Positions 47,464 to 59,100 of a stretch of DNA of 64,000 nucleotides are shown here, piece after piece. The stretch's first letter is position 1. Each line of letters starts with the position of its first letter. The notes under the pieces are model-generated. The model saw only the letters and a program-made list of their open reading frames with translations, was not told the origin of the DNA and did not search any database. Origin of the DNA: an uncultured delta proteobacterium (GTDB taxonomy: Bacteria > Desulfobacterota > Binatia > Binatales > Binataceae); contig CAVRUK010000005.1 of NCBI GenBank assembly GCA_963724395.1, forward strand, positions 1,001,261-1,065,260, in the 5' to 3' direction. Position numbers and translations under genes: made by a program.

Positions 47464-49488
47464 ATGATCCAGCACAACCATTTGCGCAACTCTCGGGCAC
47501 TGGTTTACAAGTTTTCGCTGATAATTGCGTTCCTCACTTTGACTTCGGCAATTTCACCGCCACCCGCCTCCGCCCAATTGCCACCGCTGATTCCGCGCGA
47601 CGTTCTGCTTGGCAATCCCGAGCGCGACAATCCGCATATCGCGCCCGACGGCAAACGCCTGGCATGGCTGGCGCCCGATGGGCACGGAATTCTGCAGGTG
47701 TGGGTGCAGACCATCGGGAGTCACGACGCGCGCGCCGTCACCGCCGACAAGAGCCGTGGAATTCACTCCTACCTGTGGGCGTTCGATTCGAAAACGATCC
47801 TCTACATGCAGGACGCCGCCGGCGACGAAAACTTCCACGTCTTCGGGGTCGATCTCGACTCGCTCAACGTGTGCGATCTGAACCCGTGGAATGGCGTGCG
47901 CGCTGAATTCGTCGCGGCGAGTCCGAAATTTCCCGAACGGGCGCTGGTTGCGCTCAATCTGCGCGATCGCAAACTGATGGACGTCTATCGAATCGATCTG
48001 CGCAACGGCGCCGTCGAACTCGATACTAAAAACCCCGGCGACATCGGAGGATGGCTGGCCGATGACGACCTGATCGTGCGCGCGGCCACGGTCACGACGC
48101 CCGACGGCGGCACCGAACTTCGGATTCGCGACCGCGCTGCCGGTCCGTGGCGCACTCTGATGAAGGCTGCAAAGGAGGACCAACTGGCGGCGCTGGACTT
48201 CAGCAAGGACGGACAATCGATCTTTCTCGGCACCTCGATCGGCACGGACACCACGCGCCTGGTGCGCCGTGAGATCGCGTCAGGGAAGGAAACCGATATC
48301 GCGCACAGCAACGATGCGGATCTGAGCGACGCGATGATTCAGCCGACGCGTCACGTCGTGCAGGCAGCGGCGTTCGATCCCGGCCGCCAGCATTGGGTCG
48401 TGATCGATCCGTCGGTTCAGGCCGACTTCGACGCTATCGCGAAAATCGCCGATGGAGATTTCACCGTCGTTGACCGCGACCTCGCCGACCGGACGTGGAT
48501 CGTCGCGTTCTCGAGCGACCGCGCGCCGACGCGCTACTATTCGTGGGATCGCGGATCGAAGAAAGCGACCTTGCTGTTCAGTGTTCAGCCCAAACTCGAC
48601 GATGCCCCGCTCGCCGCGATGAAGCCGGTTGAATTCACCGCCGGCGACGGAATGAAGCTCAACGGCTACCTCACGCTGCCGACCGGCGTGCCCGCAAAAA
48701 ATCTCCCGTTGGTGCTCGTGGTGCACGGCGGACCGTGGGCGCGCGATAGCTGGGGCTTCGATCCCGATACCCAACTACTGGCGAACCGTGGCTACGCTGT
48801 GCTGCAGATAAATTTTCGCGGCTCGACCGGGTTCGGCAAGAAGTATCTGCACGCCGGCGACCGCCAATGGGGCCTCAAGATGCAGGACGACCTCACCGAC
48901 GCCATCAAGTGGGCCGTCGATCAAGGCATCGCCGATCCAAAGCGAGTCGCTATCTTCGGCGGCTCATACGGCGGCTACGCGGCGCTCGCCGGGGCGGCAT
49001 TCACGCCCGACCTCTATCGATGCGCGGTGGACGAATGCGGGCCGTCGAATCTGTTCACGCTGTTGGCGTCGATCCCGCCGTATTGGGAAGTTGCGCGCTC
49101 GATCTTCTCGACCAGGGTCGGGAATTCCGCCGAACCCAGGGACAAGGAGCTGTTGACGGCGGCGTCGCCGTTGTTTTCCGCCGACAAAATAAAAATACCT
49201 ATGTTGATAGGCCAGGGCGCCAACGACCCGCGCGTCGAGCAGGCCGAGGCCGAGCAGATCGTCAATGCGATCGCGAAACATCGCGGGAGCGCGGTTTACG
49301 TTTTGTATACCGACGAGGGCCACGGCTTCGTGCGGCCGGAGAACCGGCTCGACTTTATCGCCCGAGCGGAAAAGTTCCTGGCCGATAACCTGGGCGGGCG
49401 CTACGAGCCGATGAAAGGCGATCGAATTCCCGGCTCGACCGCGAAGGCCCGCGTCGTCGGGAGCGTCGCCGAACCGACATCGCCGTAG
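47464..49488 (+). CDS. S9-family serine peptidase (prolyl oligopeptidase/dipeptidyl-peptidase type), secreted
   Basis: 'GGSYGGY' nucleophile motif, C-terminal 'DEGHGF', N-terminal beta-propeller region, signal peptide. Confidence 0.8.
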
Positions 49489-49591
49489 ACTCGCGCAAAC
49501 ACTTCGTCGATCAGTTGTGATATGAAAAATTATGCGGCGCACCGACATCGAGGCGTTGCCGCCGACCGCCTAATCGCCAGGAGGAATCGCC

Positions 49592-50434
49592 ATGGCCGAA
49601 TTCGGAATCTCGATGTTCCCGACTGACTACGCAATCCAGCCGATCGAACTCGCACGCGCGGCTGAGGAACGCGGCTTCGAGTCGATGTTCTTCCCCGAGC
49701 ACACGCATATCCCCGCGTCACGCAAGACGCCGTGGCCCGGCGGCGGCGAATTGCCGAAGGAGTACTGGCACACCCACGATCCGTTCGTCGCGCTCGGCGC
49801 GGCGGCGGCGGTAACCAAGAAAATTAAACTCGCGACGGGCGTATGCCTGGTGATCGAGCGCGACCCGATCACGCTCGCCAAGGAAGTCGCGTCGCTCGAC
49901 ATGATTTCGGGCGGGCGCGTGATTTTCGGCATCGGCGCGGGCTGGAACGTCGAGGAGATGGAGAATCATGGCGCGGTCTTCAAGCGGCGCTGGAAAATCG
50001 TCAAGGAAAAAATTCTCGCGATACGGCAAATATGGACCAAGGAGGCGGCGGAGTTTCACGGCGAGTTCGTGAACTTCGATCCGATCTGGTCGTTTCCCAA
50101 ACCGGTGCAGGCGGGCGGACCGCCGATCCTGCTCGGCTCGCAATCGCCAAAGACGTTCGAGCGCGTCGCGGAGTATTGCGACGGATGGATGCCGATCAAT
50201 TTTCCGCGTTACGATCTCGCCGCCGGCCTGAAGGCGCTTGCCGATGCGGGCCAGAAGGCCGGCCGCAAGAAACTTCCGGTCTCGATGTTTGGCGTCGGTC
50301 CGAATGAGGAACATATCAAAAAGTTCCTCGACCTCGGACTCGACCGGCTGATTTTCGCGCTGCCGCCGGCGACACGCGAGACCGTGCTGCCGTTGCTCGA
50401 CAAGTACGCCGACCTGAAGGCCAAGGCGCGCTGA
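49592..50434 (+). CDS. Luciferase-like monooxygenase (LLM) family oxidoreductase, probably F420-dependent
   Basis: 'MAEFGISMFPTDYAIQPIELARAAEERGFESMFFPEHTHIP' resembles the F420-dependent LLM class. Confidence 0.65.
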   Translation: MAEFGISMFPTDYAIQPIELARAAEERGFESMFFPEHTHIPASRKTPWPGGGELPKEYWHTHDPFVALGAAAAVTKKIKLATGVCLVIERDPITLAKEVASLDMISGGRVIFGIGAGWNVEEMENHGAVFKRRWKIVKEKILAIRQIWTKEAAEFHGEFVNFDPIWSFPKPVQAGGPPILLGSQSPKTFERVAEYCDGWMPINFPRYDLAAGLKALADAGQKAGRKKLPVSMFGVGPNEEHIKKFLDLGLDRLIFALPPATRETVLPLLDKYADLKAKAR

Positions 50435-50457
50435 GGAGACTCATGATTTTTCCTGAA

Positions 50458-50512
50458 GTGGCTCTTGACTGGACTAGCCGCGATCTTTAGTCTAGCCACC
50501 CTATCGACTAAA
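50458..50512 (+). promoter_or_regulatory. Putative Rrf2 operator region containing the 'ctagtc/gactag' dyad motifs
   Basis: 'ttgactggactagccgcgatctttagtctagcc' upstream of the Rrf2 gene; related 'gattagtctagtcatctaatagg' at 51003-51025 downstream. Confidence 0.35.
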
Positions 50513-50523
50513 AACACGGTAAC

Positions 50524-50982
50524 ATGCTCTCGAAGAAGTCGAAATATGCCCTCAAGGCGATGATGGTTTTGGCCAAGGAATACGGCCAGGGACCCGTGCT
50601 CATCTCTGACCTGGCGCAGCGCGAAGGTATCCCGCGCAAGTTTTTGGAGCTTATCCTGCTTGAGCTCAAGAACCAAGGGCTCCTGCAGAGCAAGAAGGGC
50701 AAGGGCGGCGGCTACTTCCTCGGCCGCGATCCTCACCTGATCAGCGTAGGGCACGTTGTACGCGTCCTGGACGGGCCAATCGCACCTCTGCCATGCGTCA
50801 GCAAGACGGCATACATGCGATGCCGCGAGTGCCGCGACGAGCGCAGTTGTGGAATCAGGATCGTGATGAAGGAAGTCCGCGATGCGACCGCGAAAATAAT
50901 GGACTCGACTTCGCTGACCGACATGCTCAAGCAAGTCGAGGCAGTAGTAACCGGCAAAGAATCGCTGAGTTTCGCGATCTGA
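50524..50982 (+). CDS. Rrf2-family transcriptional regulator with a three-Cys cluster
   Basis: 'MLSKKSKYALKAMMVLA' wHTH N-terminus; 'CVSKTAYMRCRECRDERSCG' putative Fe-S ligands. Confidence 0.8.
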   Translation: MLSKKSKYALKAMMVLAKEYGQGPVLISDLAQREGIPRKFLELILLELKNQGLLQSKKGKGGGYFLGRDPHLISVGHVVRVLDGPIAPLPCVSKTAYMRCRECRDERSCGIRIVMKEVRDATAKIMDSTSLTDMLKQVEAVVTGKESLSFAI

Positions 50983-51036
50983 AAAGTTTCGGCAATTTTT
51001 TTGGGAGATTAGTCTAGTCATCTAATAGGATAGCTT

Positions 51037-51234
51037 ATGAAAATGGACTCAACTCTGACTAGCCGGCGCGATGCTCAACCTGAGCCCGATTCGGGCGACG
51101 AGATCCTGCGGCGCATTGCCAATGCCATCAGCGGCGTGCGCTTCGGCTCGATCGAGGTCGTAATCCAGGACTCGCGAGTCGTGCAAATCGAGCGCAAAGA
51201 GAAATTTCGCTTCGACAAGACCGGTCGCGGGTAG
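51037..51234 (+). CDS. DUF2292 (YezD-like) small protein
   Basis: 'FGSIEVVIQDSRVVQIERKEKFRF' matches the YezD/DUF2292 core as remembered. Confidence 0.55.
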   Translation: MKMDSTLTSRRDAQPEPDSGDEILRRIANAISGVRFGSIEVVIQDSRVVQIERKEKFRFDKTGRG

Positions 51235-51261
51235 CCGATCGAAACAAATTGTCCGCGACCA

Positions 51262-51400
51262 TCAAAAATTTTGAGAGGAGCCCGGACCGGGCAAGGATCC
51301 GGTGCATCGTGAATAGAGCCGACACAAATCAACCGCGAGCTGACCGGTCATCCGGAAGTTCCCAAGACGACGAGGGACTTTTGAGATGAGAAACCGAGCT
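51262..51400 (+). promoter_or_regulatory. Conserved ~135-nt leader (copy 1) upstream of the beta-helix gene
   Basis: Near-identical to 52258..52395: 'ggaaggatccgg.gca.c.tga...cgcgagctgaccgg.catccggaagttcccaagac...gagatgagaaa'. Confidence 0.55.
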
Positions 51401-52246
51401 ACGCTCCGTTTTCAGTGGATCCTGCCGACACTGATGATTGTCGCAGGCTTGATGATGCCGGCTCCGGCCTCGGCGCAGACGGCGTGCGCCCCAACCATCA
51501 ACGCGTGCGGATGCACAATCGATGCGCCCGGCTCCTACAAGCTCGGGCTGAATATCGATTCGGCTCAGGGACTCACTCCCGGCGGCGCGTGCATCGAGAT
51601 CGCCTCGAGCTTCGTGATCCTGGACGGCGCGAAGAAAACCATCACCGGGCCTGGTGGCACGAAGCCAACCGGGATTGGAGTCTGGGTTCATCGCAATTTG
51701 CGTTCAGACTTCCTCGGATTCCGTGGCACGGTGATCAGCGGGTTTGACGTCGGCTTGCTCATCCAGGGCAGTCAAATCGTCGCCGACGACGTCACCACGA
51801 ATACCAATGGGACGGCGGGTGTCGAGCTGTACAAGGCCGATTCTGTCGAGCTCACCAATACCACTGCTGAGAACAATCTCAATTACGGAATCTGGCTGAA
51901 GGCAACGTCCTCCAGCGATGTCACAAATTCCAAGACCGAGTCCAACGGCAACATTGGATTGTACGTGGGATGCTCCGATCTCGGGCCGATCAGCGCCGGA
52001 TGCACAGGAGTCGGCGGGTCACCGGGCAACTACATTTTCACGGGAAACATCCAGGCGAACGCCAACTACGGCGTCGCACTCGATATCGGCGCCAGGAACT
52101 CGATCGTGACCAACCAGACGCTGGGAGGAGGCACTCACAATTCGAAGGACGATTTGTTCGACGCGAATTCGAGTTGCGGCAGCAACAAATGGTTCGGCGA
52201 TGACTCGACGGCGACCAACAACCAGGCCGGCGGCTGCATCAAATGA
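51386..52246 (+). CDS. Secreted right-handed parallel beta-helix repeat protein
   Basis: Signal peptide; repeated 'N.NGxxG(I/V)' beta-helix rungs ('NNLNYGIWL', 'SNGNIGLYV', 'ANANYGVALD'). Confidence 0.5.
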   Translation: MRNRATLRFQWILPTLMIVAGLMMPAPASAQTACAPTINACGCTIDAPGSYKLGLNIDSAQGLTPGGACIEIASSFVILDGAKKTITGPGGTKPTGIGVWVHRNLRSDFLGFRGTVISGFDVGLLIQGSQIVADDVTTNTNGTAGVELYKADSVELTNTTAENNLNYGIWLKATSSSDVTNSKTESNGNIGLYVGCSDLGPISAGCTGVGGSPGNYIFTGNIQANANYGVALDIGARNSIVTNQTLGGGTHNSKDDLFDANSSCGSNKWFGDDSTATNNQAGGCIK

Positions 52247-52257
52247 CGAGTCGCGCA

Positions 52258-52395
52258 CGACCATAAAAAAACAGGGAGGAGCACGGACCAGGGAAGGATC
52301 CGGCGCACCATGACACAGCCATTAAATAATCGCGAGCTGACCGGACATCCGGAAGTTCCCAAGACCATGAGGGGCTTTCGAGATGAGAAAATGCA
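52258..52395 (+). promoter_or_regulatory. Conserved ~135-nt leader (copy 2) upstream of the porin gene
   Basis: See 51262..51400. Confidence 0.55.
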
Positions 52396-53852
52396 CTTTG
52401 CCGATCCTGCCGGTTATGCTGGCGGCGATAATTGCCGGGGTGTTTGTTCACGCCCGGCCGGCGCATGCGCAGTCGAGGCTGTCGACCGATCCGAAGGATC
52501 AGGAAATCGAATTGCTGAAGACCGAGGTCAAGCAACTCAAGCAGAGGGTCGATACCTTGGAAGGACTTGACCAGAAAGTGAAAGTGATCGACCGCAAACT
52601 CGAAGTTCAGGAAGAGACCCAGCATCAGAGGTCGCTCGAGATGCCGATCGTTAAGGTAGGCGAGGAAGGATTCTCGCTGTCGTCGCCCAACCACGACTAC
52701 AATATCGATTTCGGCGGAATCATCCAGGGTGACGGCCGCTTCTTCACCAGCGGCGCAGACAAGAACGTCGGCAGCACGTTCTTCCTGAATCGAGTGCGCC
52801 CGATTATCACCGGTTCGGTTGCGCAGTATTACAACTTCAACATCACGCCCGACTTCGGCCAGGGCAAGGTCACGCTGCAAGACGCCTACATCAATATGAC
52901 CTATTGGGATTATGCAAGCCTGAGGGCCGGGAAGTTCAAAGCGCCACTGGATCTCGAGCGCCTACAGTCGGACCGCGATCTGGAATTCAGCGAACGCTCG
53001 GAGATCCAGAATCTGGTCCCGAACCGCGACACTGGCGCCGACCTCCACGGCAGACTTATGGACGGCCGCGTCTTCTATGACGCCGCGTTAATGAATGGAG
53101 TACCTAACAACACTGCCGCGGACACTACCGACCTCGACACCAATGACGGCAAGGATTTCGTCGGCCGCATCTTCACCACACCGTTCGAACTCGGCGAGAA
53201 CAGATGGCTCAAGGGCCTGGGTTTCGGTTTCGCCGGTTCTTATGGCGATGAACGCGGCGCCACGACCTCGACCTACAAGACCTACGGCATGAGTACCTGG
53301 TTCCAGTACAACAAGGGCGTGACCGCGTCGGGGTTGCGCGCGCGAATCGAACCGCAGCTCTACTACTACTGGCGCAGCTTTGGATTGATGGCCGAGTACG
53401 CGCAGGACCAGCACTCGCTGAACCTGTTCACCACTACCGGGAAGGCGCCGTTTACAAAGCTCATCAATCGTACCGACACCTTCACCGACACCGGCTATTT
53501 CGTGCAGGGTTCCTACCTGCTGACCGGCGAAGATGCGTCCTACGGCTGGGTTAAGCCGCATCATCCGTTCGACCCGCGCAATGGATTCTTTGGCGCATGG
53601 GAGTTGGCGGCCAGAATCAGCAACGTCGCCGCGCAGACGCGCCAATTCCAGCTCGGTTTCGCCAATCCGAGCGTGTCCGCGGAAACTGCGACCGAGTGGG
53701 CGGTGGGCGTCAACTGGTACCTGAACTCGAACATCAAGTGGCAGTTCGACTATGCGAACACGTTCTTCGACGGCGGCGCCGGCACGACCTCCGACGTTAA
53801 GGACCGGCCGAACGAAAGCGTCATCGAGTCGCAACTGCAGATCTCGTTCTGA
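52383..53852 (+). CDS. Outer-membrane anion-selective porin, OprO/OprP (phosphate-selective porin O/P) family
   Basis: Signal peptide, N-terminal coiled coil, beta-barrel body ending in C-terminal '...LQISF'; O/P porin-like '[10 protein letters not shown]' region. Confidence 0.65.
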
Positions 53853-53859
53853 GGTGAGA

Positions 53860-54891
53860 ATGTTTGGCCGCAAATTGAAATTGACACACACGCTCGCCGC
53901 CATCACTTTGGCTGCGAGCGTTGCTTTCGGCATTGGCGCCGCGCGCGCGGCCCAGGTCACACTGCTCAACGTGTCGTACGATCCGACCCGCGAACTTTAC
54001 GAAGCTGTCAACGCCCAGTTCGCGAAGGATTGGAAGGCGAAGACGGGCGACGACGTAGCGATCGAGCAGTCGCACGGCGGCTCGGGCAAGCAGGCGCGCG
54101 CTGTTATCGATGGTCTCGAGGCTGACGTGGTGACACTCGGACTCGCGGGCGACATCGATGCGATCGTCGACAAGGCGGGCTTGTTGCCGCCGGACTGGCA
54201 ATCGCGCCTGCCCGACAACAGCTGCCCCTACACTTCGACCATCGTGCTGTTGGTGCGCAAGGGAAATCCGAAGCAGATCCACGACTGGGATGACCTGGTG
54301 AAGCCGGGCATCTCGGTAATCACGTCGAATCCGAAGACCTCGGGCGGTGCGCGATGGAACTTCCTCGCAGCGTGGGGTTACGCGCTGAAGAAGAACGGCG
54401 GCGATGAGGCCAAGGCGGCGGCGTTCGTCGGCGCGCTCTACAAAAACGTGCCGGTGCTCGACTCCGGTGCGCGCGGCTCGACGACTACGTTTGTCGAGCG
54501 CGAAATCGGCGACGTGCTGATCGCATGGGAAAACGACGCGCACATCGCGATCAAGCAATTCGGCGCCGACAAGTTCGAGGTCGTGTATCCGTCGATAAGC
54601 ATCCTCGCAGAACCTCCGGTCGCGTGGGTGGACAAGGTGGATCAGCGTCACGGCACCGCCGCGATCTCGAAGGCATACCTGGAATTTTTGTACACGCCCG
54701 CGGGGCAGGAAATAATCGCGCAAAATTTCTTCCGTCCGCAAGACAAGGCGGTCGCCGCAAAGTATGCGAGCCAATTTCCAAGCTTGCCCCTGCTCACGAT
54801 CGATTCGGATTTTGGCGGATGGAAAAAGGCGCAGCCGAAGTTTTTCGGCGACGGCGGCGTGTTCGACAAGATCTATCAGCCGGGAAGTTAG
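53860..54891 (+). CDS. sbp: Sulfate/thiosulfate ABC transporter periplasmic binding protein
   Basis: '[61 protein letters not shown]' is canonical Sbp/CysP. Confidence 0.8.
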
Positions 54892-54900
54892 CGTCACGCG

Positions 54901-55740
54901 ATGGGAGTTGGAGCGAAAACGAAACGGACCAATGTGCTGCCGGGATTCGGCCTGACGCTGGGCTTCACGCTCGCGTATCTCGGAATCGTTGTGTTGATTC
55001 CGATCTCGACGATCTTCTTCAAGACCTTCACGCTGACGTGGCCTCAGTTCTGGGCCGCCGTCGCAAGTCCGCGAACGGTAGCGGCCTACCGGCTGAGCTT
55101 CGGCGCTTCGATTGCGGGAGCGTCGATCAACTCGGTGTTCGGATTCATCGTGGCGTGGAGCCTGGTCCGCTACGAATTTCCCGGCAAAACGCTGATTGAC
55201 GTGATGGTCGATCTGCCGTTCGCGCTGCCGACTTCGGTGGCGGGAATAACTCTCACCGCGATTTACGCGGGCAACGGATGGATTGGGCGGTACCTCGCGC
55301 CGCTTGGAATAAAGGTCGCGTACGCGCCGCTCGGCGTGGTCGTGGCGCTTACGTTCGTCGGGCTGCCGTTCGTAGTTCGCACGATTCAGCCTGTGCTCGA
55401 GGATCTCGACCAGGAATATGAGGAGGCGGCGGCGACGCTCGGCGCGAGCCGCTTGCAGACGTTCATGCTGGTGATCGCGCCCGCGCTGATTCCCGCGCTG
55501 CTCACAGGATTCGCGCTCGCGTTCGCGCGCGCGCTCGGTGAATATGGCTCGGTCGTATTCATCTCGGGCAACATGCCGATGCATACCGAGGTGGTGCCGC
55601 TGCTGATCATGAGCAAGCTCGAGCAGTTCGATTACGCCGGCGCGACCGCGATCGCGGTGGTGATGCTGACGGCGTCGTTCGCGATTCTGCTCGGCATCAA
55701 CGTGCTGCAGAGGTGGAGCAGTCGCCGCCTGGCGGCCTGA
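54901..55740 (+). CDS. cysT: Sulfate ABC transporter permease CysT
   Basis: Six TM segments with the EAA loop; position after sbp. Confidence 0.8.
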   Translation: MGVGAKTKRTNVLPGFGLTLGFTLAYLGIVVLIPISTIFFKTFTLTWPQFWAAVASPRTVAAYRLSFGASIAGASINSVFGFIVAWSLVRYEFPGKTLIDVMVDLPFALPTSVAGITLTAIYAGNGWIGRYLAPLGIKVAYAPLGVVVALTFVGLPFVVRTIQPVLEDLDQEYEEAAATLGASRLQTFMLVIAPALIPALLTGFALAFARALGEYGSVVFISGNMPMHTEVVPLLIMSKLEQFDYAGATAIAVVMLTASFAILLGINVLQRWSSRRLAA

Positions 55741-55749
55741 CGTTTCGCG

Positions 55750-56634
55750 ATGGCCACTCAGTCGCAAGGCGAACAGAGAAAACCCGGGACCGCCGATCCG
55801 CCGGCGGTCAGAATCGCGCTGATCGCGACGGCTCTGGCGTTCGTCGCGCTGTTCATTTTCATCCCGGTGATCGCGGTCTTCGTCGAGGCGCTGCAGAACG
55901 GTATCGGCGCTTACTTTGCCGCGATTGTCGATCCCGAGGCGCGCGCCGCGATTCGCTTGACGCTGATGACCGCCGCGATCGCGGTGCCGCTGAACGTTAC
56001 TTTCGGAATCGCCGCGTCGTGGGCGATCGCGCGCTTCGATCTTCCCGGCAAGCAATTGCTGCTGACGCTGATCGACATACCGTTCTCGGTCTCGCCGGTC
56101 ATCGCGGGGATGCTGTTCGTGCTGCTGCTCGGCGTACGCGCCCCGATCGGCGGATGGCTCGCGGATCACGGCATCAGGATCATTTTTGCGGAGCCGGGAA
56201 TCGTGCTGGCGACTATCTTCGTCACGTTTCCGCTCGCCGCCCGCGAGCTCATCCCGATCATGCAGGCGGTCGGCAGCGAGGAGGAGGAGGCCGCGATCGT
56301 GCTGGGCGCCGGCGGATGGCAAATGTTCTTCCGGGTGACGATTCCCAACGTCAAGTGGGGCTTGCTGTACGGGATGGTGCTGTGCAACGCGCGCGCGATG
56401 GGCGAGTTCGGCGCGGTGTCGGTGGTCTCGGGGCATATCCGCGGGCATACCAACACGATGCCGCTGTACGTCGAGATTCTGTACAATGACTACCAGTTCG
56501 CGGCCGCGTTTGCGGTCTCGTCGCTGCTCACCCTGCTCGCGATCGCGACGCTCATCGCCAAGTATTACCTGGAGCGGCGCGTGGTGCCGGTCAAGCAGGA
56601 GCAGGACGACATGGCAGTCAAAGTTGCGGCATGA
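55750..56634 (+). CDS. cysW: Sulfate ABC transporter permease CysW
   Basis: Paralogous permease following cysT. Confidence 0.8.
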   Translation: MATQSQGEQRKPGTADPPAVRIALIATALAFVALFIFIPVIAVFVEALQNGIGAYFAAIVDPEARAAIRLTLMTAAIAVPLNVTFGIAASWAIARFDLPGKQLLLTLIDIPFSVSPVIAGMLFVLLLGVRAPIGGWLADHGIRIIFAEPGIVLATIFVTFPLAARELIPIMQAVGSEEEEAAIVLGAGGWQMFFRVTIPNVKWGLLYGMVLCNARAMGEFGAVSVVSGHIRGHTNTMPLYVEILYNDYQFAAAFAVSSLLTLLAIATLIAKYYLERRVVPVKQEQDDMAVKVAA

Positions 56635-56637
56635 GTC

Positions 56638-57708
56638 ATGAGTATCGAACTCAGAAATATCAGCAAGAAGTTCGGCGACTTCGTTGCGGTCGACAATATC
56701 AATCTGCATATCGAAACCGGCGAGCTGGTCGCGCTGCTGGGGCTGTCGGGCTCGGGCAAGACCACGCTGCTCAGGATAATCGCGGGGCTGGAAACGCCCG
56801 ACACCGGCGAGGTGCTGTTTCACGGCGAGGACGCGAGCGACGTCAGCGTTCGCGAGCGCAAGGTTGGTTTCGTATTCCAGCATTACGCGCTGTTTCGCCA
56901 CATGACGGTGTTCGAGAACGTCGCGTTCGGACTGCGCGTGCTGCCGCGGCGGGCGCGACCGGCAGAGGCCGAAGTCGCGCAGCGCGTGCATGAGCTGCTG
57001 AAACTCGTGCAGCTCGACTTTCTTGCCGACCGTTACCCCTCGCAACTCTCCGGTGGGCAGCGCCAGCGCGTGGCGCTTGCACGTACGCTCGCCGTCGAGC
57101 CGAAAGTCCTGCTGCTCGACGAGCCGTTCGGCGCGCTCGACGCGAAGGTGCGGCAGGAACTGCGCCGATGGCTGCGGCGGCTGCATGACGAGATCAAGAT
57201 CACCAGCGTCTTCGTCACGCACGACCAGGAAGAGGCGCTGGAACTCGCCAACCGTATCGTGGTGATGAACCAGGGACGTATCGAGCAGATCGGCTCGGCC
57301 GAGGAAGTCTATCACCATCCCGCCAACGCGTTCGTGTACAACTTCCTGGGCAACGTGAACCTGTTCCACGGCCGAATCGAAAACGGCCGCGTGTTTCTCG
57401 GCGACACCGCCGTCGAGCTCGACAGTACGCACGCCCACGCACATCCCGAGACCGGCAAAGCGGTCCTCTACGTGCGGCCGCATCTGCTGGAAATCGTGCT
57501 GAGGCCCAACGGCAAGCAGACGTTCCCCGCAACTGTGAAGTCGATCAACCCGGCGGGGCCGCAGGTCAAAGTCGAGCTGGTCGCCGAATGGGGCGACATG
57601 GTGCAAGTCGAGATCAGCCACGATCGCTACCAGACTCTGCACTTGGAGACGGGCGCGCACGTGTTCCTGAGACCCAAAGAGCAGAAGCTGTTCGTGTACC
57701 AGATCTAG
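56638..57708 (+). CDS. cysA: Sulfate/thiosulfate ABC transporter ATP-binding protein CysA with a C-terminal TOBE domain
   Basis: Walker A 'GLSGSGKTT', signature '[13 protein letters not shown]', Walker B 'LLLDEP', C-terminal TOBE-like extension. Confidence 0.85.
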
Positions 57709-57713
57709 AGTTC

Positions 57714-57907
57714 ATACCATATGTGGTGGTCCTGGGAGGCGTCGACTACCATCGGTAGCTTCGTTCCGTCAAAAAACTAATTTTCGCCGGAAGCGGTTTC
57801 GTTGTCGCACAATTTCGGGCGAGCTTGGCGAGGTAGGGGTTTGGTTGACCATACCTTATGGATAGCACAGAAAGTCCGCCGTGGTCAGGCTGAAAAGTTC
57901 ATCCCCC
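57714..57907 (-). repeat. Interspersed ~200-bp repeat family, copy D (inverted orientation)
   Basis: Reverse complement reads 'gggggatgaacttttcagcctgaccacggcgg...tttgacggaacgaagctaccgatggtagt...ccaccacatatggtat'. Confidence 0.6.
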
Positions 57908-57939
57908 ATGTTCGACCGCAGATTCACGAGCTCCCGCAC

Positions 57940-58476
57940 ATGATCAACGATCACAACCTTCGCGCGGCGCACAACAATGCCCGATGGTGCAACGCGGTCT
58001 GCGCCGCGCACGGGAATCCCGGCGAGTTCCATGAGGGCCTGTGGCTAAGTCGCCATTCGGTGCCACGCTTCTATCCAAATGCCGGGACGCTTGCGGAGGC
58101 CAGTCAGCGGCAGCTCGATCTGATCGATGAGCTGATTGCATCGCGCCTGCCGCCCGGATGGGCGGTCAAGGATAGTTTCTGCATGCTTGACCTTGAGTCG
58201 CGTGGGTTCCAGGTGTTGTTCACCGCGGAGTGGATCCATTTGCCGGTTTCCTCGCTTAGGGACATCGCCACTGCAGTAAAGGTGGACCGATGGGAGGTTG
58301 TCAGGAGCGATCGTGCACTTGCAGAATGGGAGTCCGCGTGGAACGGGACAGGAGGCGATGGGAGCGGGGAGAGAATTTTCGTGCTTTCGCTACTTGCCGA
58401 TCTTCGCAACGCGCACGCCTTGGGCTTCGAGTCGCTCGGCCCGCTGCGAGTTTGGACGTTCCAGCCACCTAAGTAG
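57940..58476 (+). CDS. Hypothetical protein
   Basis: ORF 57802..58476 trimmed to 'MINDHNL' because its 5' part overlaps repeat copy D. Confidence 0.3.
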   Translation: MINDHNLRAAHNNARWCNAVCAAHGNPGEFHEGLWLSRHSVPRFYPNAGTLAEASQRQLDLIDELIASRLPPGWAVKDSFCMLDLESRGFQVLFTAEWIHLPVSSLRDIATAVKVDRWEVVRSDRALAEWESAWNGTGGDGSGERIFVLSLLADLRNAHALGFESLGPLRVWTFQPPK

Positions 58477-58491
58477 ACGAAAGGCGCGCAG

Positions 58492-59100
58492 TCACTTGAC
58501 CCTTTCGAACTTGGCGTAGCCTGTTAGGTCTTGATCCGACGTTGTGTGCATTGGCATTGAGACTTCGCGTAGTACTGGGACTTTTTCTGTGATTGTGCCT
58601 GTGGCTGGGGCGTCCTTGGGTACCGTTATTACTCTTGTGCCTACGAAGCGGATTACTGTGGGTAGCATGCCGCCGGTGTCTTTGTAGTGAGTGTGGGTTG
58701 CTTCGAAGACTGTGTCGCTCTTGAAGAGTTTCGAGCCGGCGCGAATCAGGTATTCGTTGTTGCCCAGCGGGCGGACCAGGGTTGATTGGCTTATCACATA
58801 TAGATGTCCGACGGTTGGGCGTAGGAATCCCGGGTAGAGCGGATTTATGCCTAGCCAGTACGGCACGATGATGCGGCGGCCGGGCGGCCAGTCGGTCAGG
58901 CTGATATGCGCCTCGTGATCGTTGTTGGCGAGGATGAAGTCGCGGCCGGCGAAATCGCGCATGATGTCGCGGCTCAACTGATCCTCGGGCGGTGTGGTGA
59001 TTTCGCCGGTCGGGCCGAAGTCGAGCGCCTTGTCGGGAGTGCATCCGGCGACGACCGACATGAGCGTTAGCGCGATTGCGATGACGACGACGCGATTCAC
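58492..59100 (-). CDS. Lipoprotein of unknown function (tandem paralog 1)
   Basis: Lipobox 'LTLMSVVAGC'; paralogous to the next gene ('YVISQSTLVRPLG' vs 'YVISEATLEKPLD'). Confidence 0.5.
   Translation of the reverse strand: MNRVVVIAIALTLMSVVAGCTPDKALDFGPTGEITTPPEDQLSRDIMRDFAGRDFILANNDHEAHISLTDWPPGRRIIVPYWLGINPLYPGFLRPTVGHLYVISQSTLVRPLGNNEYLIRAGSKLFKSDTVFEATHTHYKDTGGMLPTVIRFVGTRVITVPKDAPATGTITEKVPVLREVSMPMHTTSDQDLTGYAKFERVK

Follow-up and report, generated by a model that had tools for sequence, protein, structure and literature searches.

A duplicated uORF-containing leader as a candidate translational attenuator in the sulfate-uptake operon of Candidatus Binatus

Introduction

In translational riboswitches and RNA thermometers, the Shine-Dalgarno (SD) sequence and the AUG start codon are paired to an upstream anti-SD strand, which in turn has an alternative partner. 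For sulfate-uptake genes, we know of no established riboswitch or leader peptide for the availability of sulfate, thiosulfate, O-acetylserine or cysteine; the genes themselves may follow a small companion gene, as in the oscA-sbp-cysTWA arrangement that we take to be that of Pseudomonas. This work concerns a leader of ~125 nucleotides (nt) that occurs twice in the sulfate-uptake operon of Candidatus Binatus, within a stretch of 64,000 nt (hereafter the window) from an uncultured delta proteobacterium of the Binataceae (GenBank assembly GCA_963724395.1, contig CAVRUK010000005.1, positions 1,001,261 to 1,065,260). The genes in question encode, in this order, an F420-type LLM oxidoreductase, an Rrf2-family regulator, a DUF2292 protein, then, behind leader copy A, a NosD/beta-helix-like secreted protein, and, behind leader copy B, a Porin_O_P protein, followed by sbp, cysT, cysW and cysA. 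From sequence comparison and predicted folding, we lean towards the view that both copies act in cis, as mRNA leaders that control the gene behind them by translational attenuation or as an RNA switch.

The sul1 RNA motif is an orphan cis-regulatory RNA found in the 5' untranslated regions of non-homologous genes, mostly sulfate transporters, and its authors saw no binding to ions such as sulfate (Weinberg et al. 2017, PMC5737381). Mycobacterial attenuators built on leaderless polycysteine upstream open reading frames (uORFs) sense cysteine via runs of Cys codons (bioRxiv 10.1101/834739), and in the erm/cat attenuators, such as ermCL-ermC, the SD sequence and the start codon are sequestered by a hairpin whose 5' arm a uORF overlaps, with alternative pairing and no terminator (PMC5499644, PMC5118997). 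Literature searches on DUF2292, OscA, and Binatota and sulfate turned up no account of the present leader, and sul1, still an orphan, is the only RNA candidate that was found in a sulfate-uptake context.

The leader is duplicated before two non-homologous genes

Copy A, before the beta-helix gene, occupies positions 51268..51393 of the plus strand, and copy B, before the porin gene, positions 52269..52390 of the same strand, both delimited by a covariance model built from relatives (R1) and the former also by alignment with copy B and relatives. In the 64-kb window this model scores copy B at 139.8 bits (E 5e-39) and copy A at 134.9 bits (E 1e-37), the next-best match reaching 11.9 bits. The original prediction, made from the letters of the window, had placed a ~135-nt leader, ~85% identical between its copies, at 51262-51400 and 52258-52395, two ranges that are offset by ~6 nt in register at the 5' end; their global alignment contains 109 identical positions (83% of ungapped columns, 75% with gaps included), the copies without the ragged ends (51268-51393 and 52269-52390) are ~83-85% identical, and the shared blocks quoted at the time are also seen in the MAFFT alignment of both copies, so that the duplication is borne out. 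Within the 64-kb window, the 35-mer CGCGAGCTGACCGGNCATCCGGAAGTTCCCAAGAC and the 32-mer GAGGAGCNCGGACCNGGNAAGGATCCGGNGCA have exactly two occurrences apiece, where shuffles would lead one to expect none.

The similarity sets in near CGACCAT (~51254 and ~52256) and ends after ATGAGAAA (51393 and 52390), that is, it reaches 8 nt into each coding sequence and then stops. The 80-nt flanks on each side align at 55-57%, which is the background with this scoring, and the proteins encoded behind the two copies are not homologous (best BLASTP E 0.83). The earlier statements that the downstream coding sequences are unrelated and that conservation is confined to the leader and the start of the coding sequence therefore hold, a similarity running on into homologous coding sequence is contradicted, and Pfam matches agree with the Rrf2, DUF2292, sbp and cysTWA neighbours that had been named.

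Distribution and selection

A 19-base core pattern, run against 185,579 species genomes, matched in 54 stretches, and the R1 model confirmed the element in 37 of them, corresponding to 36 genomes labelled Binatus, Binataceae or "delta proteobacterium" metagenome-assembled genomes and to one Acidiferrales-labelled contig; the other 17 pattern matches, in other phyla, lie within unrelated sequence and show no covariance-model match. The 36 GTDB species genomes carry the element at this locus only, in two copies ~1 kb apart in 21 of them, and a scan of metagenomes for different parts of the element added at least ~100 further copies among the matches listed (at least 120 loci). A search of the 64-kb window for more copies yielded none beyond these two. 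At most two copies, confined to this locus in the scanned genomes, are not what a generic dispersal of the repetitive extragenic palindrome (REP) type, the other possibility that had been raised at the outset, would produce.

Among the 122 leaders with enough upstream sequence, the gene ending in front of the leader is DUF2292 in 70, the beta-helix gene in 51 and a diverged beta-helix gene in one; the genes downstream are orthologues of the beta-helix gene, of the porin gene or, once, of sbp, in a contig (locus L073) with the order Rrf2, DUF2292, leader, sbp. Relatives retrieved through the porin have either both leaders and the beta-helix gene (L001) or DUF2292, a single leader and the porin (L002, L003 and L004). 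These contexts, together with the joint absence of DUF2292 and leader from two further loci, indicate that the element is a locus-specific part of the operon and not a dispersed repeat. In those two loci (L181, 3476-5273; L182, 236-2210), which belong to a related lineage whose Rrf2 is 84% identical to that of L073, the porin gene lies ~70 nt directly behind rrf2. Across the genomes and metagenome contigs scanned, the leader is found only in the uncultured soil lineage Candidatus Binatus and is restricted to the Binataceae.

Between species, the leader has a mean identity of 0.86, against 0.64 and 0.60 at the four-fold synonymous sites of the porin and beta-helix genes, respectively, and 0.75 for the adjacent proteins. 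In the 3' part of the leader, pairs of beta-helix-type copies and pairs of porin-type copies both reach 0.87, and mixed-type pairs 0.73, irrespective of whether they come from the same genome; the leaders thus group by type and not by genome, from which it follows that the duplication is old and that both copies have been maintained. The copies are, by this measure, paralogues of long standing, and selection has kept each of them. The proposal that selection acts on a cis-acting element common to two non-homologous genes of a sulfate-uptake cluster is accordingly supported by its presence in at least 36 species genomes, by conservation well above the neutral rate, by its restriction to this operon and by a hairpin over the SD sequence and AUG that exists on the mRNA strand.

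The beta-helix gene, flanked by these ~125-nt direct-repeat leaders, is present in some genomes (the window, L001) and absent from others (L002, L004, L028, L036, L038 and so on), a polymorphism for which the direct repeats may account. At single-leader loci, the mid region is slightly nearer to that of beta-helix-type leaders and the 3' part nearer to that of porin-type leaders, an identity pattern compatible with, and not decisive for, an origin by recombination between the repeats.

Secondary structure of the leader

ViennaRNA folds both window copies into a 5' hairpin, termed P1, followed by a long hairpin in which CAUCCGGAAGUUCCC is paired with the segment that carries the SD sequence and AUG. 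The core of P1 in copy A (CCGGACC, loop GGGCAA, GG-a-UCCGG; 51282..51302, plus strand) is seen in the centroid fold, with an outer stem possible to ~51277-51308, and its loop is atypical, GGGCAA replacing RGGGAA; that of copy B (CGGACC, AGGGAA, GG-a-UCCG; 52284..52302, plus strand) appears in both the minimum free energy (MFE) and the centroid folds, with an outer stem to ~52276-52309. Family-wide the P1 core is 99% paired, with the consensus CCGGACC, loop RGGGAA and GG-a-UCCGG, and the outer stem has been rebuilt with other sequences and its pairing kept in L073 (GGCGGAUUGGA.../...UCCUUUCCGCC), L004, L027, L128, L152 and L079; as regards a possible aptamer, compensatory changes are seen in P1 only. 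A flank-swap energy test of the outer stem gave a weak effect (0.5 kcal/mol, p = 0.05), most flanks being alike, and the case for this stem is made by the individual lineages in which it was rebuilt. P1 is followed by a variable mid region of 19-28 nt, by an invariant block, GAGCYGACCGG-N-CAUCCGGARGUUCCC, that comprises the GAGCUGACCGG segment and the 5' arm of the long hairpin, by a loop of 7-10 nt, and by the 3' arm GAGGGRCUUYYGAGAUG, which holds the SD sequence and the start codon.

The long hairpin, or sequestor, extends in copy A over 51349..51388 of the plus strand (CAUCCGGAAGUUCCC ... GAGGGACUUUUGAGAUG; MFE and centroid folds, -15.1 kcal/mol), where it pairs the SD sequence at 51372-51377 and the start codon at 51386-51388, and in copy B over 52346..52385 of the same strand (-17.6 kcal/mol), where it pairs the SD sequence at 52369-52374 and the start codon at 52383-52385. 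Its 15 pairs are 99% paired in 124 distinct sequences, compared with 36-53% when the partner strand is slid, and the frequent changes are all of the G-C/G-U or U-A/U-G type, which means that the helix exists on the mRNA strand only. The best independent support for the predicted sequestor comes from two diverged leaders: in L073, located before sbp and endowed with a different ribosome-binding site (RBS), GGUUCC pairs with the SD sequence GGAGCC and GGCCAU with AUGGUC, and in L184, whose neighbouring beta-helix protein is 54% identical, the helix is altered on both sides, as CUCCUC/GAGGAG.

When the 3' arm is left out, RNAalifold predicts a competing 9-bp hairpin, GAGCU-GA-CCGG-NCAU-CCGG-A-AGUUC, which lies in copy A at 51337..51361 of the plus strand (GAGCU-GA-CCGG-UCAU-CCGG-A-AGUUC, -11.5 kcal/mol) and in copy B at 52334..52358 of the same strand (-11.4 kcal/mol). 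This alternative, or anti-sequestor, hairpin has 98% of its cells paired in the 124 sequences and is nearly invariant in sequence; the MFE fold of the diverged L180 leader contains it, and it is the sole part kept in L183, where P1 is gone. The invariant block is common to both helices, and the model that would suit this arrangement is a two-state switch.

Decayed copies of the leader occur at L130 (336-468), L183 (833-911) and L184 (50-196), in which P1 is missing and the central GCUGACCGG-NNNN-CCGGARG hairpin region is retained before beta-helix genes; of all parts of the leader, the central hairpin thus seems to be the core that persists longest. Two further pairings were considered and dropped, namely a pseudoknot that would join the P1 loop GGGAA to the anti-SD UUCCC, as the loop variants AGAGAA, AGGGAG and GGGCAA are uncompensated, and a pairing of the mid-region AGAGCC with GGCUUU of the 3' arm, which is not kept in L008 or in L069-type leaders. 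In a mutual-information search for more helices or pseudoknots in a 125-sequence alignment, the top pairs reflected only the split between beta-helix-type and porin-type leaders.

The upstream ORF

A conserved uORF, which was not part of the original prediction, runs through the invariant block. In copy B (MTQPLNNRELTGHPEVPKTM..., 52310..52570, plus strand) it starts at the base of P1, traverses the two alternative hairpins and, out of frame with the porin gene, extends beyond the ATG of the latter, and in copy A (51309..51389, plus strand) it is degenerate, with a GTG start and a frame unlike the family consensus, its stop TGA overlapping the main ATG (ATGA). An ATG-initiated ORF through GAG-CUG-ACC-GGN-CAU-CCG-GAA-GUU-CCC is present in 106 of the 122 leaders, or in 116 when GTG and TTG starts are included, and shuffled mid regions yield such an ORF in 21% and 41% of cases, respectively; the conserved peptide reads ...N(R/H)ELTGHPEVP. 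When the mid regions are grouped into 21 sequence clusters, 14 have the uORF in the consensus frame and two use the other open frame.

The frame is kept most consistently in the porin leaders, of which 60 of 65 have a consensus-frame ATG, three a GTG or TTG and two an ACG. In ATG-bearing leaders, mid regions of 27, 24 and 21 nt keep the frame, and lengths of 26, 28 and 19 nt break it; porin leaders whose mid region is very different or whose ATG has been relocated (L145, L123, L069, L008 and L064) belong to the in-frame set, so that in porin leaders the frame survives mid-region length differences of 3, 6 or 9 nt, and the out-of-frame length variants that were traced are beta-helix leaders. 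The diverged L184 leader retains MKGIVELTGHPEAP with two synonymous changes. Regarding the 3' end, the uORF of beta-helix leaders that possess one terminates at or just before the main AUG in 23 cases and is in frame with it in 22, and in porin leaders it extends 104-185 nt beyond the AUG, out of frame; from these comparisons only the first 16-20 codons look constrained. Of 115 leaders, 89 have a GGAG on the 5' side of P1, and the P1 loop presents AAGGA 11-15 nt upstream of the uORF start. An initial reading of the mid-leader AUG as merely structural, prompted by the lack of a constant frame in its distance to the main AUG, was revised once the frame was measured against the invariant block.

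A putative translational attenuator

Three features together make up the architecture of translational attenuation, namely a hairpin that sequesters the RBS and whose 5' arm is crossed by a uORF, a second pairing option and the absence of a terminator; as in the erm/cat systems, the Binatus leader has a short uORF (degenerate in window copy A) and a sequestering hairpin whose 5' arm lies inside it, the second pairing is a predicted one, and terminator-like sites in 50300-54200 occur at chance level, none of them in the leaders. In the default state, the 15-bp hairpin would lock the SD sequence and AUG. The second partner of its 5' arm would be the invariant segment GAGCUGACCGG just upstream, with which it may form the 9-bp alternative hairpin and leave the RBS free. 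As both the invariant segment and the 5' arm lie within the short uORF that starts at the foot of P1, a ribosome that translates, or pauses on, the uORF codons could unmask the downstream start as in translational attenuation of the erm/cat type, or, alternatively, a factor acting on P1, and hence on uORF initiation, could do the same. Synthesis of the two envelope proteins would thereby be tied to the sulfate ATP-binding cassette (ABC) transporter of the same operon, and the gene context points to sulfur supply or status as the most likely trigger. What the sequences show is the conservation, the potential for pairing, the strand specificity, the kept uORF frame and the confinement to this operon; uORF translation, switching and the signal we infer.

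Several observations weigh against this proposal, which we believe somewhat more than we doubt and which is drawn from sequence comparison and predicted folding. As many as 16 of the 57 beta-helix leaders, window copy A among them, are without a consensus-frame uORF, and their leader is still conserved; the position of the uORF stop is not conserved; and the uORF has no SD sequence at the canonical distance. The third-codon positions of ELTGHPEVP are mostly invariant, the exceptions being GGN, GAA/GAG, CCC/CCU and ACC/ACU, so that constraint at the RNA level alone could explain the apparent conservation of a peptide; RNA-level constraint on the invariant block is certain, and peptide-level constraint possible. 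The conserved peptide contains no run of Cys or Met codons, and sulfur sensing via charged tRNA, as expected of an amino-acid-sensing leader peptide of the trp/his or polycysteine type, is thus not evident. Regarding structure, 27 of the 124 sequences have a C-A mismatch at one position of the alternative hairpin, and the covariation is thin, since the family is young, the search patterns fixed part of the sequence, and most changes are one-sided transitions that G and U partners automatically tolerate.

TnaC and SpeFL are arrest peptides that sense their ligands. By analogy, ELTGHPEVP might arrest the ribosome in response to a sulfur-related small molecule, or P1 and its junction might form the first riboswitch for an inorganic or early-pathway sulfur compound, in either case making the leader a sulfur sensor for porin and beta-helix translation; we regard this as unlikely. 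If true, the leader would sense sulfur supply directly and turn on, in an uncultured phylum, the translation of a lineage-specific beta-helix protein and of a sulfate porin of the outer membrane. The element is in any case compact, strongly conserved and, at ~125 nt, easily synthesised, with testable parts (P1, the uORF, the two competing hairpins and the RBS), and it could show how Binatus, an abundant uncultured soil lineage, couples the entry of anions through the outer membrane to the sulfate ABC transporter of the inner membrane.

Alternative explanations

The alternative that survives best, doubtful as it is, is a metabolite or ion riboswitch, in which an aptamer for some sulfur-related ligand would be made up of P1 and the conserved junction (AGAGCC..., CGCGAGCUGACCGG), with the hairpins as its expression platform and the uORF incidental. 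Such a reading would account for a nucleotide-level conservation over ~125 nt that extends to synonymous positions of the putative uORF, for the near invariance of the P1 loop RGGGAAGG and of segment GAGCUGACCGG, for the predicted bistable SD-sequestering platform, for the exclusive association with sulfate-uptake genes and for the loss of the uORF from many beta-helix leaders that are still conserved. Nevertheless, the platform is preceded by a single helix, P1, and support for an aptamer of several helices is lacking; the mid region, which separates P1 from the switch, is the most variable part and changes in length; P1 is itself absent from some copies (L130:336-468, L183); and the in-frame ATG is left unexplained. 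Rfam 15 gives no match either, as scans at E <= 10 of 49000-59000 and of each leader alone, with sul1 and the SAM/SAH riboswitches among the models, found nothing on the leaders; a PreQ1 match near leader B (52242-52280) was discarded as chance, its 12 bits comparing with a gathering score of 39.

A protein-operated RNA switch, in which a trans-acting protein bound to the P1 loop or to GGA segments sets the state of the RBS, is less probable still. The candidates would be the OscA-like DUF2292 protein, whose gene precedes the first leader in 70 of 70 cases and is missing jointly with the leader in L181 and L182, where the porin stands directly behind rrf2, or a CsrA-like GGA binder. The CsrA loop consensus is ARGGAU, which the invariant AAGGAU presented by the P1 loop resembles. 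However, one deletion could explain the joint absence, the loci covered beyond the core clade are few, and DUF2292 has no known nucleic-acid-binding activity or solved structure.

An mRNA processing or stability element, with cleavage in the A-rich stretch 5' of P1 and P1 then acting as a protective 5' hairpin that gives the downstream cistrons a half-life of their own, seems very unlikely. The conserved A/U-rich tract (GAAAAU) just 5' of a stable hairpin, its intercistronic position in a probable polycistron and the absence of a predicted promoter there would fit, but the conserved 3' 90 nt, the SD/AUG pairing and the uORF remain unexplained, and at most an additional role of P1 could be accommodated.

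There is yet less to recommend a DNA-level promoter and operator, for Rrf2 or another transcription factor, duplicated before the two genes. An rrf2 gene is adjacent, and the leader contains the inverted repeats CCGGA...TCCGG and GACCGGTC; the helices, however, need G-U pairs and are valid on the mRNA strand only, the fold z-scores are -1.7 on the plus strand versus -0.9 and +0.1 on the minus strand, and conservation is continuous over ~125 nt through the AUG. No sigma-70-like promoter was found in 50300-54200, leaders included. The candidate sites for transcriptional control lie elsewhere: a promoter-like TTGACT-N17-TAGTCT upstream of rrf2 (50466-50512) is overlapped by the palindrome TTTAGTC-N13-GACTAAA, and a related ATTAG-N9-CTAAT site upstream of DUF2292 (51004-51030) shares with it the exact 9-mer TTAGTCTAG, which occurs in the window at 50487 and 51009 only and is absent from the leaders. 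Both sites are conserved in L001, L002 and L004, with a diverged form in L180 and L182, and are candidate Rrf2 operators and operon promoter. With boxes upstream of rrf2 and DUF2292 and no promoter in the leaders, the latter are probably intercistronic elements of one DUF2292-to-cysA transcript, with Rrf2 acting on transcription. Of the operator, attenuator or small riboswitch-like RNA originally offered as possibilities, the attenuator or RNA switch is therefore favoured and the DNA operator disfavoured.

Finally, a functionless recent segmental duplication, or a dispersed repeat resembling REPs or miniature inverted-repeat transposable elements, deserves next to no credence, since the two direct repeats ~1 kb apart, with a beta-helix gene between them that is present or absent by genome, are both conserved by type far above synonymous sites, number at most two per genome, always at this locus, and keep their similarity out of the coding sequences, so that this reading is already contradicted.

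The operon and its genes

The rrf2 gene (50524..50982, plus strand) encodes a regulator closest to CymR, below the cut-off (Pfam, NCBIfam), and is followed by the gene of the DUF2292/OscA-like small protein (51037..51234, plus strand; Pfam DUF2292), which is directly upstream of the first leader. Against the NCBIfam model sulfur_OscA NF033785 ("sulfur starvation response protein OscA") this protein scores 55 bits, below the cut-off of 85, and a search of Protein Data Bank sequences gave no match to a solved structure. Directly upstream of rrf2 is the gene of the TIGR03619-family F420-dependent LLM oxidoreductase (49592-50434), a synteny kept in L001, L002 and L004; weaker matches to alkanesulfonate and dimethylsulfone monooxygenases hint at an organosulfur link.

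The beta-helix (NosD-like) secreted protein is encoded behind copy A at 51386..52246 of the plus strand (Pfam NosD/Beta_helix). Its family is tiny, with 165 proteins at E <= 1e-5 among 5.8 billion, of which the few named members and all loci examined are of the Binatus type, and its members conserve an N-terminal Cys motif, C(P/A)PTINxCGC. Many database entries have 311-328 amino acids (aa) rather than ~286, some relatives being ~25 residues longer than the window protein; these overlong entries probably start at the uORF ATG of the leader where it is in frame, a gene-caller error, and the leader would correct the annotated start of the beta-helix protein in some relatives.

The OprO/P-family porin gene lies behind copy B at 52383..53852 of the plus strand (Pfam Porin_O_P, E 5e-23); an exact match to the window porin is not on record in public assemblies, its homologues at 75-93% identity carry the name Candidatus Binatus, and its linkage to sbp is kept in the Binataceae loci retrieved. 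The sulfate ABC transporter genes sbp-cysT-cysW-cysA span 53752..57708 of the plus strand (Pfam SBP_bac_11, BPD_transp_1 twice, and ABC_tran with CysA_C_terminal and TOBE); the mechanical ORF start of sbp at 53752, which overlaps the porin gene ending at 53852, is an ORF boundary and not an established sbp start. An open frame of 1279 aa antisense to sbp-cysTWA (53821-57660, minus strand) is almost certainly no gene but a shadow ORF cast by the GC-rich coding strand. Downstream of cysA, a 224-aa ORF (57802-58476) has no Pfam or NCBIfam match at the thresholds used; relatives have an MsrB (SelR) gene at this position, before which L001 has a small gene and one with a PIN domain, and the region downstream of cysA thus varies between genomes.

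Comparison with known systems

In gene context, the closest analogue of the Binatus leader is sul1, the closest by mechanism are the erm/cat attenuators and, as far as sulfur is concerned, the comparison is with the mycobacterial polycysteine uORFs. The leader and sul1 differ in sequence and structure, as well as in the genes they precede, the transporter class of sul1 in one case and an sbp-cysTWA ABC system in the other. With the erm/cat attenuators the leader shares the overlap of uORF and sequestering 5' arm and the lack of a terminator, and the predicted 9-bp hairpin would supply the alternative pairing; there is no sequence similarity, and the controlled genes would be the porin and beta-helix genes of a sulfate operon and not resistance genes. 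It differs further in having an additional conserved hairpin, P1, at the uORF start, and a uORF without a canonical SD sequence on which stalling is only putative. The polycysteine attenuators are likewise a uORF-based form of cis control in sulfur-linked operons, but the Binatus uORF does not follow their codon-run logic.

Compared with the platforms of translational riboswitches and RNA thermometers, the leader has no evident multi-helix covarying aptamer, and its hairpin, at -15 to -18 kcal/mol, exceeds the stability expected of a typical thermometer. As for the operon, it resembles the OscA context in having a small DUF2292-type gene directly upstream of genes for sulfate binding and ABC transport, to which the Binatus cluster adds the Rrf2 regulator, the porin, the beta-helix protein and the leader. 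In summary, an RBS-sequestering, uORF-containing leader of this kind is new to Rfam, and the general principle that it would follow is a familiar one.

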